In this document: piece by piece, positions 11,100-63,656 of the stretch
Layout: each line of letters begins with the position of its first letter
How positions within the stretch are numbered: the first letter of the stretch is position 1
Source: Catajapyx aquilonaris
Taxonomy: Eukaryota
Assembly (NCBI GenBank): GCA_000934665.2
Contig: JYFJ02000239.1
Location: 62,001 to 126,000, forward strand
Length of the DNA: 64,000 nt
Direction of reading: 5' to 3'
The notes under the pieces: model-generated
The model's database searches: none
The model's input: only the letters and a program-made list of their open reading frames with translations
What the model was told of the DNA's origin: nothing
Translations under genes and position numbers: made by a program

Positions 11100-14000
11100 A
11101 TGGAGCCTTCACGTAGAGAGCTCAAGATGAATTCGAATGATATGCACATAATGATGGACCAGAAAAATCTGTTGGGCCTTTTGCAGTATGGAAGGAGCGA
11201 TGCGTCTGACGATGTGGCCGAGGTATTGTTGTTGCTGTAGCCTGTAGGCTACATGTGTATTAATCTAACAGAAGGTCTGAAGTAATTAAAAAAAAAAAAC
11301 TTTTATAATATTAAGCCTCAAAAGGCACTGCTGTGCTGTGCTTGTGCAATATACTGTTACACAACCTTTTAACAACACAATCATGTAATGTTATGCAGAA
11401 AAGAGAAGCTGTACGGCAGTGCGGCATCGAGATCCAAAACATGCAACTAGTGTACAATGAGATACAGGAATTGATGTGTACCCCAGAGCTGATACCGCCA
11501 CAAATGAGGCCAACAATGGAGAAGAAGTTGCAGAGCCTCACTGCCAAAATTCTGAAGAAGGTCCAGGAGGAAGAAGAGCTTGCGGCTCAACTGCGGAGTG
11601 CCGAGTAAGTTTCCTGTCTGCATTTCGTCCGAACTGTCCAAAGGCATCTCGCTCCTCAAAAAATTGTCTCCAAAAGTCTTCAGCACTGACAAGTTAGTGA
11701 GACCTTGTTTGTCTAGTTCTGCCGATTTCGCATTTCAGGGAGAGCTTCCGGCGCATGGACCTGGAGACAGTGAACACAGTCGCGGCGGTGACGCAGGAGG
11801 TCAACCGGATGGACTCCCAGTACACAGCCGTCAGAGATAAGCGTCGGGTCAGGCGCCAGGTACAAGAGAAGCACCTTCTGGACGCCTTGGAGGAGAAGAG
11901 GAAGCGAGAAGAGGAGAAAGCCAGAGAGGAGAAAGCGGCCAGAGAGGAGATGGAGAAGCACCGGATGATGTCCAAGGAAGAGGCCCAGGAGCGGGTAAAG
12001 CCCTATGTGATGAAGACTGCGAAGGAGTGGCGACGACGGAAGGAAGAAGAGGAGAAGGAGAAGGAGAGGCAGGCTCATGAGAAGATGGCTGCGGCCCTGA
12101 CGCTGAAGAAGAATGTGGAGGAGCAGAGGGCGTGTTTTGTGGGCCGGATCGCCATGAGAGCAGTGAAGGACATGGAGGAGAAGGAAAGAGTGGAGGAGGT
12201 GAAGAAAACCCTCCTGGAACAAGGGCGCAACCCGTACTATTACCTCAGGAGGCAGAAGAAGGAGAAGGAGGAGGAGGAGAAGATGCGGCTGATGGAACGC
12301 AAGCAGACAGAGAGGAAGGTGGCCATCATGAAGAAGATAATGGCCGAGGAGGAGTACGTGGAGAAACGGAAGAAGTTCGAAAACAAGATGAAACCTCGTG
12401 CGAGGCAAGCGAAGGATGAGACGCAGGAACTCATGGACTTCATAAGGGAAGAGGGGTGCTTATGGGGGGTGGATGAGGAGGAGGAGGAGGAGGAAGAGGA
12501 AGAAGAAAAAGAGGAGGAACAAGAAGAGGTAGAAGAAATAGGGGAGGAAGAAGGAGATGAAAAAGGCGACGATGAAGAAGAGAAAGAGAATGAAAGAGAG
12601 GAAGAGGAGGGAGCGGAGGAAGAAAAGAAACAGGAAGAGCAGCAGGAGAAGAATTTGGTAAATTTGGCAGAAGCAGAAACCATGTCGACTAACCAGCAGG
12701 ATTTTGGTGAGGATTCGAACGAGGGGAAAATTTCGATGATGGAAGGAGCCAGAGGATCGATAATGACCACAGTGTCTGGCACCAGGAGGAGTTCCCTGGC
12801 TGAATCGGTGCAGGTGGCACAATCTGAAGAGGACGCCCTGGGCTGGTACACTTGCGAGGACGATCGTTCGATCATATCGGCCACTAGCCTTTCCTCCAAC
12901 AGGGACTTCGACCTGAAGCAGTTATCAGACATGGACTCTATATCTGTCGACGATTTCTTCGCCGGACAGTACAAGAGAGCGAACGCGTTCGTCAGCAAAC
13001 CGTCGCACATAATCTTCGATGTAAGTGTAATCCTTATTACACCTTCAGGCCAGTTCAAATATTTTCTTGAGTCCCTGAAACTCTATGATAAATTATTACC
13101 CCCATAGACGTCATACAGTCACAAATGACAGTGGTATTTTTGCGCTTGATATTTGCTGTTGATTCGCACTTTCAGGAGTTTGAGCTGGGCGTCCCTCAGA
13201 GAAAAAGGGGCCGACTGGTCAACGTAACAATGGTGAAGCAGAACATCCGACTGAAGTCATTCCTGCTGTACCAGTCCAAGAAGAATAACAACGGCGGCAT
13301 TGAGGCTCTCTGGGACGATGATTTCATCAAGGCCAATCTGGACGTGACCCTCGAGCGTTTCCCGGGTGGCGTACCGTACGGCCTGAACGTCAACTACGTC
13401 GTCACGTTCACTCCGACGGTCCTGGAGCATCTGGTAGGCGAGCTCCAGTTCGCCTGTCAGGCTGGCACCATCACCGTTCCGATCGAGTGTTACCCTATAA
13501 GCTGCAAGCCCAAGGTGCATTCAGCCAGCGTCAAGTTCGGTACGGTTCTGGTGGGCAAAAGGGTCAACAAGGTCGTCGAAATTCTGAACGCGGGAGCCCT
13601 TGAAAGCGGGTTTACCATGGAGCTGAAAGAAGACGAACGAGATTACGACGAGGAGTGCGAAGATGAAGTGGAAGCTGAGGAAGAAGATAAGGAAGAGGAA
13701 AAGGAGGAAGATGAAACTTCGCCAAGCACAAATTTGGCAACGGAAAAAAACTGGGAGAAGTCTCCGTCGATCTATGTGACGCCGAGCAAGGTTCGGTTCG
13801 CCGAGGAAGACGAGAGAGAGCAGAAGGATGAAGATGGTGACGATGAGGAGGAAGATGAGGACGACGATGACTACCTGATGGAGGCTTACGTTGAGAGCGA
13901 GACTGAAGAAGCGGAGTTCGCGGCCAGATCCATTGTAGAGAGCGCGATAGACGCGGTGTTTAACACCTGGAGGATTTACAGCCTGATGGACAATTACGTA

Positions 14001-17000
14001 CTGCCGGGCAACGGGAGGGTGCCGATCATGCTGTGCTTCTTTCCGTCTGTTCCGGGATTTTACGACATGCGGGTGGTCTTCAAGTTTCAGGCGCCTAAGA
14101 CCAAAAAGGTAAGACAAACTCGCTGAGACAGTTAATGTACACTATTGTAGAGTGACATTGATGTGCTTCTCTCTCTCGGAGCAGGTCGTTCTCAGGATTC
14201 AAGCTAGTGCGGAAGCTGTGCCCATCTGGTTGACAAATACCGACATAAGCTTGGGAGTTTGCCTGGTTAACCATATTCATCAGGATCTGTTTGTCGTAAG
14301 AAACGACACGACTACTTCTTGTCGCGTGAAGGTTGAAGTTCCCAAAGAACTGAAAGAGTATGTGGAGGTCAATCCCAGAGACACTTACACCCAGCCTGAA
14401 TCCACTTGCGATATCTTAGTCCGACTAAAGCCAGGGTATGTAGCTTACAGTACTCCTACAACTAGTACACGTCACGTTCTGTAAGTGTCAGTATACGACG
14501 TTGAGGAAAATTTTCAGAAAAACCTTGGAAGCTGATGCTGGTGAATTCTTCAATCGGGACACTCGAATCCTAGACTTCCCCGTCAAGTTTCATCTCGGAC
14601 CGCCGTTCGAAACTTTCCCTCCATTAGTTGGCACCGTGCAGAGCGTAGTGACCGATTGCTCCATCAAGTTCAACCCAACAGAGCTCGACTTTGGGCGGTG
14701 CAGCGTCATGGAAGCCGTCACTGAGCGGCTGCACATCAAGAACCACTCCCTGGGGTTGCAGGAAATTGCTTGCACAGGTCTTCCTCCGGTAAGAAGACGG
14801 TTGTTGCTTAACCTATCAAATAATTTTAAAATAATAATGATCGCATTACCCTGAAATAATTTTGATTTCGCTCCCCGATAAGATACAGTAAATATTGTAT
14901 TCCTATTCTGATCCTTCAGCTTATACTCTCGGTGATACAAGGGTGCGGTTGCATATGTTCAGGATGATAACTGCTACTGTCTGGGAAGCGTCCTCTATTA
15001 ATTATTACCTATTTTAAATTGACATGTGAGAAGGGAACCTGTTATGAAGCACAGCAGCAGTCTTTCCATCACTAAGCTAATGATGCCTATTCTTCGCCAC
15101 ATGAAAATTCCCATGTGTGTGAAACAAACTTTCAAATTTACAGTGGATTCAACTGCAGCCAAATGACGGGGTGCTGGTGCTGCTTCCTGGAGACAACACA
15201 TTAGTCACAGTGATTGTGTGCCCAGGACCCCAGCAGCTCGGGAAGCTCACTTTCCACATAACATTCCGTTCATTGTGGGGCAAGGCGTACCGAGTCCCAG
15301 CAAGGGCGCACGTCATCTGGCCTCCTCTTCGCCTCTCGCAACAGGTAACGAGAGGAGCCTCCTTCTCACTGGAACCAAATTGGCCTCCATTAATCCTCTT
15401 TGTGTCTCGTCTCCTCCATGACCACAGCTGATACAACTGAGGCCTGCTCGACTCAACACCCCATCGCGCGCCAAAGTGGACCTCTTTGTATCCGAACCTG
15501 CCCCCAAAGTCATTAAGATTGGCAACAAACCGCCGGTACTGGTCTTCCCAAAGACTACAGGAAAGACCAAAGGTTGGTGCTACGAATTCGCCAAGGCTCC
15601 GACGCCGGACCTGATCATCGCACCTAGAGTCGGAATAATTTTTCCTGGACAGGTGAGAACGTGACGAGCTGCTCGTGATGTGCGAATATGTAGGGTTTCA
15701 GACAAATTAATTGGGCAGGAATCTAATGGTGCATAATTTTCTCTCCATTACCATAAATATTAATATGCGATAGAGATTTTACCATCTCACTTTCAAAGAG
15801 CCAACAACTATCATGGATCACTTCATTCCAACATGATGTCTGCGTAGTTTTCAGCCACTTATTCGCTTTTCAGAAAGTGCCTATAACCGTCACATTCCGT
15901 CCCCGCATCAATAAAGACAAGGTGCAGGCCACAGTGCGAGAGATAGTCAATAGAAACGAACTGCTTGAGATAGAGCGGCAGGAACGGGCTGCATTGGAAG
16001 AGGCGGCATTATCAAAAGCCAAGAAAGTACGAGTCTGATTTCAACTAATGTAATGCTTGAACATTTCTGACGTTACGCATTTTTCGAATGAACAGGCAAA
16101 ATCGGGCAAGAAAGCAAGCATTGTGACTCCCTTGACTGAGGAGGAAGAGTTGGGTCAGAAGATGGTCATTTTGGCAGAAGCGGAGGAGTATGTCATACGC
16201 AACTCGGAACCTGGCCATCACACGTACAAAATCCCGTGCTTCATGCTTCCTACAAAACAAGAGGTGGACATCGACTCTTGGAATCCGGCGTAAGTCTGAG
16301 GTCAAATGCATTGAACTGCTTGAACTGTGCATGTTTCCACTGAAATGTCTCTCATTACAGAGAGCATAATATTCTGTATTTGGGGGTCGACTGCCCGGAA
16401 GTAAAACCGGACATAATATTGAACCCGTACGGGTACAACTTGGATTTTGGGAAGGTGGCAGTCGGAGGGTGGAAGACTCTGTCCCGGAAGGTAGAGAACA
16501 TCAGCAACCAGACTTTCCCTCTGAAGACCAGTACACTGAATCCTGTCGGACCCATGTCAGTGGTAAATGCCCTTCGTGAATTGGCCCCAACCGAGACATT
16601 CAACATGCTGCTCAAGTACACACCAGAGGATAGCGTACCGGTACATATCTCCACCTTGTTTCTGTCTGATGCAGTGATGTCACTGTTCATAAAAATTAGA
16701 TATCGGCATCGTTTCGACAGTTTTTTAGTGAATTTTTTTGAAAAGGTTGTCTAAAAGCTACATTTCTGTTTCAGGCTGTGGAAGTGTTGGACATACACGG
16801 ACTTTTCACCAAAATTATCCTGAAGCTTACAGGAGAAGGAGTAAAACCCGAGTACGACCTAATTCCTCCTCCAAAGCTCCACTTTGGTTCCATCGTGCTG
16901 ACCCAATTCAAGAACATAGAGGTTCATGTAAGCGAAACTGTCAGGTCTTGTCTTGGAGCTCTTTGACTCAATTTCTTCCCTCGAATAGGTCAAGAACAAT

Positions 17001-17387
17001 TGCGATGCGGAACTGAATTTTTACGCTCGTTTCGTTGGGGCAACCCACAAGCCCCTTGATCCAGTGCCCAAGGACAAGACAGGAGGTGCCAAAGGCAAGC
17101 CGGATAACAAACCCCCACCAAAAGACGCTAAGAAAAAGGGACTCCCTGAAGAACCTCCACCTTGCCCCCCGGCTGCTGCAAACTGTAGTTTCTACGTGTC
17201 TGAACCTGAAATCATAGTTCCACCGAGGGAAGCCAAGAAATTGGTATTCACTTTCCTCCCTCGAATGATAGGCAAGCACCAAGGCATTTTCGACATTTGC
17301 TTCTTTCGGCATCAAGTTATTGCCAGCTACACTTTCGAAGGAGAAGGCGAGAAAAATGTATCGGGTGACAAAAAATCACAAAAATAA
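11100..17387 (+). CDS. CFAP74: Cilia- and flagella-associated protein 74-like (coiled-coil N-terminus plus ASH/PapD-like repeats), 13 exons, about 1556 aa
   Basis: Exons 11100-11222, 11399-11604, 11739-13020, 13176-14108, 14185-14435, 14518-14788, 15144-15344, 15428-15652, 15874-16026, 16096-16289, 16361-16640, 16775-16927, 16989-17387. All introns are GT-AG, phases join in frame, total 4671 nt. Motifs FVSKPSHIIFDEFELG, VPIWLTNTDISLGVCLVNHIHQD, ELDFGRCSVMEAV, QPNDG, LDFGKVAVG and LNPVGP match my recollection of CFAP74. AATAAA at 17409-17414. The exon 1 start is the least certain part. Confidence 0.85.
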
Positions 17388-23000: not shown

Positions 23001-26000
23001 CACCGTACACGTGATTACAAAAGTCGTCGACCCTGGTTAAAAACGTACAGTACAGTATGCTGAGATTAGGCAGAAGAAAAAAGACGCATAGTGAGGACCC
23101 AACTGAACTACGATTGAGAAAGGAAAAGAGATAAGGAAAGTAGCATTTCAACCTGATCCAGTGCAATAATGTGCGCCGCACTCACGAACTTTCTCCCAAC
23201 TAACATCCATCACAGAGTGAGAGAAACAAAAAAAAAAACACATAAGGAAAAACAAAAAGCAAAAACCATGTGAAAATTGTTCATAGGGAACGTCACAGTA
23301 AATGGACACAAATATAACGAACAAGCTGAACAGAAGACATCCGAGTACACGATTGGTTACCTGCTCTCTCTGCCACCAGTTCCTCAGCTTAAGCGAGGAG
23401 AAAAATGAGAAAAGAATAACAGCCAATTATGTCTGCCTCCTTGTTAACAAACTGGGGGGTAAACAACATAAATCGAGAAAAAGGAAAAGCTGCGGAAACT
23501 CAGTACGGGAGGAACTATCTTCGGATTTGGGAGGAAATAATATTTCTCTCTGATGGGATTTTACCTATATACGAACTTACCTTTCTCTTGTGCAACCATG
23601 CTTTCAGCTTTGGCAAGAGGATTTCCTGTGCGTTGTTGATAATTTGCTTTCCGATCATGATGACCGCCAACTGCTGAGCTAATTCGATGAGACAGCCACC
23701 TGCGCTGCACTGCAGAAGAAATAGATAATAGGATATAACCCAAGAATAGCTCAGGTTTTCAGACCAACTCTGCGCACTCCCTTTTCGACCCGTTTCCAGA
23801 AATAGGAACAAATCAAGGTTTCATTGGGTGCTCTAAATGTAATGAGACTATAGGAGTGGAGGAAAGAGGATGAGGAAGTTTCCTGCTCAAAGTCTCTTTG
23901 ACAAAAAAAAATGAATTTTGTCCAACTTCCTCGTGCTGGATCAAATATTACAGCGTGCGGTTACAGTGCGCGCTCTTGTAAATCTCGCCAGTTTTACTGT
24001 TGCAAACTTCTATCTTTTATTCAGTGGAATTATGCATGAGCTTTCTTTTCAAAGGACAGGATGCCTTCATTATAATTGACTGCCAACACCAAACTCACAT
24101 CGCTGAGTATAAACCACATCTAAAGGCAAGTCTTATACAATTCCTCGGATGCAAAGTTCAACCCAACTTTGAAACAAGAAGTTGTTCAGTGCATAAGTTG
24201 TTTCATTAGTTTTAATTTACAGGATGGCTCACCGCTCCAGTCCCTCACGATTTTAAAGCCTCACTATAGCCAGTACCTAAAGCAGAATAACACACACAAC
24301 TGACACTTACATCCTCATTCCTGAGTCCCAGAATGTGATTGTAGTGTCCAGGAAACCCCACAAATCTCCCCTTGAAGAATCCGATGTAAAATATGGAGGA
24401 ATAAAAGTTGACAAACTGGAAGATGAACACCTTGAACGTCAGATTGTCCTCGAATTCTGTTTGCGTGCGATGCATCTCTGTGGCAAAGAAGTATTTTTAA
24501 AAGACTGTTCAGAAGTTGGTATAATTATGAAACTTACCCCAGGTGGTGAGTCGATATGCTAGTTTCTCGTAAACTCGGCCCAGAGCCATAATGAGTATCA
24601 AGTTGACGACAGCACCGGACAAGTTGGCAATGGCTTGGGCTTGAGGTCTGAACGTGGCGTTTTGGAAGAGCGGAATGGACACCAAGACTCGATAAATAAT
24701 CACCGCCACAATAAAGATGATTACCAGGCTCATCTGTAAAAATCAAATCATAGGATTAGTTGCGGGGGGTAACGAACTCAATTTCCCTACAAAAATATAG
24801 ATTTATTCACAAAATCCGGTAATTCCCCGGATTATTTTTTAAACACCTGCAGTTAATTCCTTTTCTGGTTAGGGGATTGGCTCTAATCTCGGGAGGATTA
24901 TCCTGATTTATACGATTATCTGCAGCGACAGACATTAGGTCGCTTTCATGCAAATATGTTGTCACATTTCCAATCTGGGGAGATTTCAACTCGGGAGTCA
25001 TTCGGCATGCAGAAAAATCCGAGAAGCCAAAGATCGATTTATTGTTGCCCCAGGTTTCCACCACATCACCACTTTGTCCGGATGAATCATGCACGTCAAC
25101 CGGAAGGGTGCAGGCATGATTTCTGCTGCTTCTGGTCCTTGCAGGCAACAATTTCTCGATACAATGTAAGGCACAGCAAAAAAATAGGAGGTATGAAGTA
25201 AAAGGGGCGTAAGCAACAAAATCATCAAACATGAACGGTTCACACGCCATATATTGATTTAATAGCTTCTGAAAAACTTTCTTCGCGAATCAGAAGTGTC
25301 CTGTATGAGCAGTGTTGGAATCATAATGAAACGCCATGTTCTCTCTTCGTGTTGCATACGTCCCATTTTACTCTTAACTCATTTATTCTCCCCCCAAAAA
25401 AAACTCTTGGAGAATCCAGCTCTACACTGATAGATGTCCTTCTCAACGGCTGTTGCATGCATTGCCTTCGAAACCCATCACGATACAGCAAGTCCCACGG
25501 GAAGAAATAAATCAGCCTGCACAAGTGGCGGAGAGATATAGAAGTAAGATGGAGAAGGGAAAAAGAGAAGAAGGCAAGGCTAGGACCAACCATGAGAAAA
25601 ATGATTCCAATTCCGGCAGCGATCCTCTTGGTTCGTAATCCTTTCGGGAAGCTGGGCTCACGTACTCCGGTGATGGGATTGCGCTCCAGAAACGGAGCCC
25701 TAGCTGCAAATTCGGGTCTGGGCCTCTCTTCCTCTTCTTCAAAATCCAGGCAGTCCCAATGGTGTGCAAGACTGGCCGATTTCCGTTTCCAGTACTCCAA
25801 AAACGTCACCGCTAGAAAAATCGGAAAGGAAGCGGTTGAAGGGTCAAGCACGTCCGTGAAGTTGGCACCGCCAGTCGTCGGATGCCAAGAGGGGCTTCCC
25901 AGAGAAGCTCATTTCCGCACTTTGGCTCCACGAGGGGTTGGTATCAGGAATTTTTATGAGGCAGGGACTATCATTTGTCAAGGGTTTGCAGCACACTTGG

Positions 26001-62731: not shown

Positions 62732-63656
62732 ATGAATCGGAACCGTTCAAAAGTGACTCTTTTAGCAGACATTGTGACTGGAGTCAAGCCTGCACAGCTA
62801 GTGCTCATTGTTGGTAAGTGTTTGCTGTCTTGTAGCCAGCTTATGACCTAATGATGTGAACTTTTCAGACAGCTTGGATTGTCCGGCACGCAGACTTTTG
62901 AAGGCATTTGTCAAGTACGCTCTGGGTGATGGCCAGGTACATGTCATGTGCTGCGGGAGGCCACCGGGTGAATGGGAAGATGCATTTGCAGGGTCCAATG
63001 TTGTCACCCATGATGCTTGGAGCGATCAACGTGGATGGAGCCAAGACGGCGAATGTATACGAGACGATGCCTGCTTGCACGACTATCTCAAAGCCAAGTG
63101 GACACCCGGGTCGACCATTGTGATTGATTCGCTGTCCACGTTTTTGCTGGCACAAGGCGTCACTGGTGTTGTGCGGAATCTTCACTCGCTGATGGGATTG
63201 GAAGGCCTGAAGAGGGTTGTGTGTGTTCTGCATGGTGATGGCCATTCGGAGGAGACCGTGGCCATGTTGCGTCACATTGCCAGCGCATCATTGGTACTGA
63301 AATGTGGTAGTGCAGATCCAAAATGCCATACTACGTACAAGGCTGCAAGTGGGGCAGTTAAAACGTCGGTGGATAACTTTACGGTGTCTGATTCGTATGA
63401 ATTGACTGTAACGCCTGTTACCGTGGCACACAAGCTAAAAGTGGAGGTACAACCAGAGGATCCAATGGCGTCGATCACTACGTTTAAGCTGACTTTGGGC
63501 GAGCGAGAGATGGAGGCACGGAAGAACCTTGTGCTTCCATATATTAAAGTGGGTGAGCAGTCAGGGAGTCAGCAGTCAGAGGCAAAGATTTATTATCAGC
63601 CAGATGATGCAGATGATTTTGACGAGGATGATCCTGATGATGACTTAGACCTGTGA
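62732..63656 (+). CDS. ELP5: Elongator complex protein 5, 2 exons, 289 aa
   Basis: Exon 1 62732-62813 (G|gtaagt), exon 2 62869-63656 (ttttcag|AC). RecA-like IVIDSLS and VCVLHGD segments, plus the ELP5-type C-terminus TTFKLTLGEREMEARKNLVLPY...IYYQPDDADDFDEDDPDDDLDL. AATAAA at 63704-63709. Confidence 0.93.

Follow-up and report, generated by a model that had tools for sequence, protein, structure and literature searches.

An intronic duplicate of the end of the TM6 exon in an ANO7-like anoctamin gene of Catajapyx aquilonaris as a candidate 27-nucleotide cassette exon

The window analyzed here is a stretch of 64,000 nucleotides (nt) from Catajapyx aquilonaris (assembly GCA_000934665.2, contig JYFJ02000239.1, positions 62,001 to 126,000 of the forward strand). 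It carries on its minus strand, from about 35825 to 20587, a gene of the anoctamin (TMEM16) family, and our subject is a short duplicate of the end of one of its exons within the following intron. About 15 coding exons of the gene are matched by homologues in translated searches (tblastn). With scores above the curated cut-offs, four exons separately match the Pfam family Anoctamin (PF04547; E = 2.7e-10 to 4.4e-33), and two match the N-terminal dimerization domain Anoct_dimer (PF16178; E = 3.2e-19 and 1.8e-13). Summed over exons, the identity between the window and arthropod anoctamin-7 or anoctamin-7-like proteins is 64-72% (tblastn, homologues of 700 or more amino acids), the closest matches being orthopteran, cockroach, mayfly and hemipteran proteins that are named so by their source databases. 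An anoctamin host had been proposed in the first-pass annotation, which was made from the letters alone, and both the Pfam domains and the closest named homologues support its placement in the ANO7-like group. One homologue, P0001 (1720 amino acids), looks like a fusion of two anoctamin paralogues in one gene model; the same exons of the window are matched by its second half with 32-63% identity.

The exon concerned, referred to as exon A (23709-23581, minus strand), comprises 129 nt or 43 codons and matches Pfam Anoctamin with E = 2.7e-10. It encodes the sixth transmembrane segment (TM6) with the stretch NNAQE, followed by the cytosolic end of this helix. No protein identical to it was found in the protein collection searched with exon A. 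TM6 is described as the gating helix of TMEM16 proteins, which binds Ca2+ via these Asn and Glu residues (PMC8640346, PMC8835819). The alignment of exon A to residues 625-665 of mouse TMEM16A places NNAQE over NNLFE and P-K-L-K over P-K-M-K, so that the Ca2+-coordinating Asn/Asn/Glu stretch of TM6 is present in the Catajapyx protein. The last ten codons of exon A, hereafter copy 1 (23610-23581, minus strand), read AAG CTG AAA GCA TGG TTG CAC AAG AGA AAG and are directly preceded by a CCA codon. By this alignment, the ten residues correspond to the cytosolic continuation of TM6, in agreement with the earlier proposal that the segment directly follows the Ca2+-binding stretch. Exon A ends in phase 0 at the donor GTAAGT (23580-23575, minus strand), and an intron of 810 nt separates it from exon B (22770-22680, minus strand; 91 nt, i.e. 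30 codons plus 1 nt).

A second version of the segment, copy 2 (23390-23361), lies on the same strand 190 nt into this intron and reads AAG CTG AGG AAC TGG TGG CAG AGA GAG CAG. It is followed by a GT in the same phase as the GT that follows copy 1. The two copies share 17 of their 30 bases and differ at 13, without any insertion or deletion. The exon end, the intronic copy, their common length and phase, the 17 identities and the separate GT had all been reported in the first-pass annotation and hold as described. The count of identities stands, but it is not significant by itself: 61 of the approximately 128,000 window positions on both strands, copy 2 included, agree with the last 30 nt of exon A in at least 17 bases, and about 0.4 such matches are expected in an intron of 810 nt. 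Local alignment of the DNA of exon A with the intron is not significant either, with a score of 11.0 compared to 9.7 ± 1.4 for shuffled sequences, 50 of 300 of which reach 11.0.

At the level of the protein family, the resemblance is significant. A position-specific scoring matrix (PSSM) was derived from the corresponding ten residues of 111 homologues, which gave 53 unique 10-mers and did not include the window, and was run over every stop-free 10-mer of the six window frames (n = 80,546). Copy 1 ranks first with 28.42 bits and copy 2 second with 15.84 bits, while the next 10-mer scores 9.55 bits, 6.3 bits below copy 2. According to the exact score distribution, the probability of reaching at least 15.84 bits is 4.8e-7 per 10-mer, corresponding to 0.039 expected occurrences in the window and 2.5e-4 in the intron; these expected counts exclude the requirement of an in-phase GT (GT frequency 0.089). 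The same matrix gave no score of at least 13 bits outside genuine anoctamin exons in 80 related metagenome loci (317,568 nt, 389,359 10-mers), where the best non-exon scores were 12.4 and 12.6 bits. Arthropod anoctamin-7-like proteins read KLKAWWHKKQ or KMKAWWQKKQ at this segment. Copy 2 has the family-typical WW and terminal Q, as do most arthropod orthologues, and copy 1 has lost both (WL and a final K). Copy 2 is also identical at seven of ten residues to KLQNWWRRRQ of three other anoctamin loci (L075, L076, L079). Because the match to the family profile is far above chance and ancestral residues are retained, and judging also from strand and phase, copy 2 is a true evolutionary relative of the end of exon A. 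The partial exon duplication proposed at first sight is thereby substantiated at the level of the family profile, with strand and phase shared, and not at the level of DNA identity.

The similarity does not extend beyond the coding segment. The 190 nt following copy 1 and the 261 nt following copy 2 show no similarity, nor do the stretches that precede the two copies, the flank scores being reached by 133 and 35 of 300 shuffles. No other copy was found when the intron was searched against the rest of the window, and a transposon or repeat origin was rejected on this ground. A whole-exon duplicate of the mutually exclusive type was likewise rejected, since the frame upstream of copy 2 follows a stop and does not resemble exon A. 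Neutral decay was simulated by introducing random substitutions into copy 1: with 13 substitutions, a score of at least 15.84 bits was kept in 3 of 20,000 trials, and the fraction rose to 0.3% at 10 substitutions, 1.5% at 8 and 7.9% at 6. Such rare retention means that a large duplication with fully decayed flanks cannot have kept the peptide neutrally, and the simulation argues for constraint on the peptide. A neutral relic is feasible only if the copied piece was about 30-36 nt long at the outset and the copy is of rather recent date.

Copy 2 is accompanied by splice signals. The AG that ends its first codon (23389-23388, minus strand; CATTTTTCTCCTCGCTTAAG/CTG) is a candidate acceptor, and GTAACC (23360-23355, minus strand), directly after the last CAG, is a candidate donor. 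Between them lie the remaining nine codons of copy 2, from CTG to CAG, a candidate cassette exon of 27 nt (23387-23361, minus strand; LRNWWQREQ) that would keep the frame between exons A and B. The first-pass annotation had drawn this exon from the same cttaag acceptor, and its AG, pyrimidine tract, GT and frame are all in place. The tract (23424-23391, minus strand) lies directly upstream of copy 2 with 28 pyrimidines in 34 nt, a content attained by only 5% of the 34-nt windows of the intron. Within it, CTCAT (23409-23405), 19 nt upstream of the acceptor, is presumably a possible branch site, taking YTNAY as the consensus. Crude position weight matrices were derived from the 13 donors and 14 acceptors of the gene itself, with real sites scored leave-one-out. 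The candidate acceptor obtains 5.63 bits, above eight of the 14 real acceptors, and 29 of 864 decoy AGs score as high. It is an AAG, whereas 12 of the 14 real acceptors are CAG; one real acceptor, at the exon start 34187, is also AAG. Two further acceptors, at 23451 and 23439, would give with the same donor exons of 91 and 79 nt, which are not multiples of three, and were rejected. These signals make splicing of the candidate possible and are by themselves no argument that it occurs.

The same intron contains a second pyrimidine tract with an AG (ttag, 23201-23200), followed 14 nt further on by a seemingly good donor, TTC/GTGAGT. The corresponding 14-nt exon (23199-23186, minus strand) would shift the frame and could be a poison pseudo-exon.

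The locus was compared to other anoctamin genes. A scan of metagenome contigs yielded 24 orthologous loci, all of them distant, with 77-87% identity on exon A, which is a highly conserved exon. Eight contain the complete intron (L005, L006, L010, L011, L014, L016, L017 and L018). They stand for only about four lineages, five being termite-like and nearly identical. Two (L002, L007) have no intron at this site, and in the other 14 the sequence stops, or the next exon is not seen, within 178-10,000 nt. Among the 111 homologue segments inspected, which were covered at the level of 90% clusters, the motif was never repeated behind its first occurrence. Two apparent counterparts were considered and rejected. 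In the termite-like loci L005, L010 and L016, the same intron contains (K/N)IKALW(D/N)QKF, which has neither a GT nor an AG and is no homologous microexon; its score is 4.9 bits in L005 and 12.4 in both L010 and L016, and about one score of the latter size is expected in 389,359 10-mers. An apparent second copy in L026 (14.7 bits) is the true continuation exon, the intron of that lineage preceding the motif. The scan of viral contigs gave no relative, and that of genome contigs gave one contaminant-like contig (L081) without an intron at the site, which is uninformative.

The intron position itself varies among these loci. Arthropod-like loci (L001-L024) have the intron after the motif, except L002 and L007, and L081 also lacks an after-motif intron. 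Non-arthropod-like loci (L026, L044-L052, L058, L063-L064, L075, L076 and L079) have an intron just before KLK and none after the motif. Arthropod anoctamin-7-like proteins, e.g. P0006, P0009 and P0062, share the intron position after KLKAWWxKKx, with about 70% identity over the whole protein. In seven termite-like loci (L005, L009, L010, L012, L016, L017 and L018), the homologous intron starts with GC (CAG/GCAAGT), a feature conserved across them, and read-through of this intron may explain the odd residues (QAST...) of proteins P0057 and P0072.

Two interpretations of copy 2 carry most of the probability. We favor, at a probability of about 0.5, the reading in which copy 2 is, or until recently was, a cassette exon of 27 nt. 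This reading is favored by the confinement of the similarity to the coding part and by the retention of family residues in spite of the high nucleotide divergence. It is further favored by the intact in-phase GT and by the presence of the tract and AG at the place that preserves the frame.

Several findings weigh against it. The candidate donor CAG/GTAACC (4.3 bits) scores below 12 of the 13 real donors and is equalled by 34 of 864 decoy GTs. Ten pairs of AG and GT, spaced 6-100 nt apart, have equal or better signals within the 15-kb gene, three of them using the same donor as the candidate exon, so that the splice signals alone are not distinctive. The three codons identical in both copies (AAG, CTG and TGG) are free of synonymous changes, and each of the seven that differ encodes another amino acid. 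Long purifying selection classically leaves a different footprint, although a sample of ten codons is too small to weigh. No second family-like 10-mer followed by a GT was found in the 24 distant orthologous loci, eight of them with the whole intron. Copy 2 is therefore, on the evidence of these loci, at best lineage-specific: it is apparently not an old arthropod-wide exon but lineage-specific or younger. Lastly, if the ancestor read KLKAWWQKKQ, copy 2 is only about 5-9 changes away from it, which leaves room for a very short duplication of recent date that has drifted neutrally.

Such a relic is the strongest alternative and one that we rate at somewhat less than an even chance. Copy 2 would be an unspliced pseudo-exon. 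A piece of about 30-36 nt, made of the exon end and the first intron bases, would have been copied 190 nt downstream, perhaps in a small duplication of templated or tandem type that an insertion then moved apart, and would have drifted neutrally, the tract and AG being incidental. The failure to find a copy in the 24 distant orthologous loci, a donor that is weak for this gene where equally strong pseudo-exons are common, and conserved codons that lack synonymous differences all fit this account. So does the simulation if copy 2 is only 6-8 substitutions away from a consensus-like ancestor: the score is then kept in 1.5-7.9% of trials, even though these set out from copy 1, which scores lower than such an ancestor. 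With the 13 differences actually separating the copies, by contrast, neutral decay almost never keeps the score. A relic would also need a duplication whose sharp ends coincide exactly with the coding segment, as a larger young one should still show similarity in the flanks. Moreover, it must ascribe to chance the pyrimidine-rich tract, an in-phase GT that is still intact and a copy free of indels.

A replacement of the exon tail is far less probable, and we consider it very unlikely. The first-pass annotation held that a true swap would need a non-canonical donor; this is not strictly so, for the only GT in the exon tail (GCATG/GTTGCA, exon A then ending at 23597) can be joined in frame to CTGAG/GAAC. 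The resulting 22-nt exon (23382-23361) would substitute NWWQREQ for LHKRK, with 16 nt lost and 22 nt gained. One real donor of the gene is similarly weak, ATG/GTTGGT at 25591 (minus strand), after an apparently constitutive exon ending in GIIFLM; it is the lowest of the 13 donors, with -3.1 bits leave-one-out. Nevertheless, the scores of the swap sites are very poor. Its donor has -4.86 bits, with 509 of 864 decoy GTs as good, and its acceptor -6.83 bits, with 579 of 864 decoy AGs as good; both are far below every real site but one. In addition, the AAG acceptor located 5 nt upstream, the first AG past the tract, should win over it. Least probable of all is a chance resemblance, i.e. a purine-rich piece of the intron, unrelated to the exon, whose translation resembles the family motif by accident: the ordinary nucleotide identity, the non-significant DNA alignment and the choice of the segment by eye from a very large scan would suit it, but the tail probability and the expected counts given above (the latter to be multiplied by about 0.09 for the GT), the gap to the next window 10-mer and the lack of comparable non-exon scores among the 389,359 further 10-mers make it highly improbable. 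The observation of a duplicated exon end is hence real and statistically solid at the protein level, and the microexon reading is plausible from the sequence.

Under the cassette-exon reading, a duplicate of the exon end placed in the intron would have kept its amino-acid pattern, GT and pyrimidine tract while its surroundings lost similarity. The candidate exon would be spliced through the junctions 23581 to 23387 and 23361 to 22770. Since the last codon of exon A encodes Lys, the whole motif would be rebuilt when the 27 nt are included. The insert would add nine residues, a second basic and aromatic helix segment of two and a half turns if helical. The insertion point lies seven residues before a basic cluster, KKRK, which precedes WEEDY, so that the new residues would separate the end of TM6 that binds Ca2+ from this cluster, which lies ahead of TM7. 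They might lengthen or re-register the cytosolic extension of the gating helix, and the coupling of gating to Ca2+ or to lipid of the phosphatidylinositol 4,5-bisphosphate (PIP2) type could be shifted in the isoform carrying the insert. For TMEM16A, a PIP2 site formed by K682, R683 and K684 is reported at the cytosolic end of TM6, and P654A is reported as a gating mutation (PMC8640346); a regulatory serine, S673, is placed in the third intracellular loop (PMC8835819).

Tandem exon duplications are described as a seed of alternative exons, including unannotated intronic duplicates (Ivanov and Pervouchine 2022, PMC9013439). The present duplicate resembles those of that account: a coding segment is repeated in the neighboring intron, with strand and phase preserved, and splice signals of its own accompany it. 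Unlike them, it comprises only the last ten codons of the exon, its inclusion would be an insertion and not a mutually exclusive replacement, and it is a candidate exon seen in DNA. Short alternative segments are also described in vertebrate TMEM16A and TMEM16B, such as segment c (EAVK, four residues) and segments b and d (PMC8835819). Like these, the candidate exon would encode a very short in-frame cytosolic segment, of a kind known to tune Ca2+ sensitivity (PMC8835819). The vertebrate segments are located in the N-terminus, in the first intracellular loop (TM2-TM3) or in the C-terminus, with none after TM6 in the splice-variant section of that review (PMC8835819). They are not copies of neighboring sequence, unlike the candidate exon, and the host here is an invertebrate ANO7-like gene. 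A literature search found no paper joining anoctamin and microexon, and searches on TMEM16 alternative splicing at TM6 and on ANO7 splicing gave nothing at this site among the matches listed.

Besides the anoctamin gene, the window contains a multi-exon gene on the plus strand (11701-17384), which converges on the 3' end of the anoctamin gene and has the CFAP74 Ig-like domains PF24771, PF24770 and PF24798 together with an ASH domain. The strong skew of GC and AT at 12-14 kb is due to an acidic-rich exon of this gene. An open frame on the plus strand (62847-63653) matches the Elongator subunit Iki1 (PF10483, E = 6.3e-13).

The significance of copy 2 depends on which of the two leading interpretations is correct. 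A relic would be a commonplace product of local duplication, useful mainly as a warning for gene annotation. The fuller form of the cassette-exon reading is proposed tentatively, as a possibility somewhat on the doubtful side: a selected, lineage-specific exon of 27 nt derived from the end of the TM6 exon, whose in-register repeat of the motif would act as a length switch and which would be the first site of alternative splicing to be described in the TM6-TM7 linker of any TMEM16 protein. If the cassette exon is real, it would place a splice site at a location other than those given in the splice-variant section of the TMEM16 review, which are the N-terminus, the TM2-TM3 loop and the C-terminus (PMC8835819). 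Its nine extra, motif-repeating residues would then offer a natural probe of how the length and register of this helix couple Ca2+ binding to gating.

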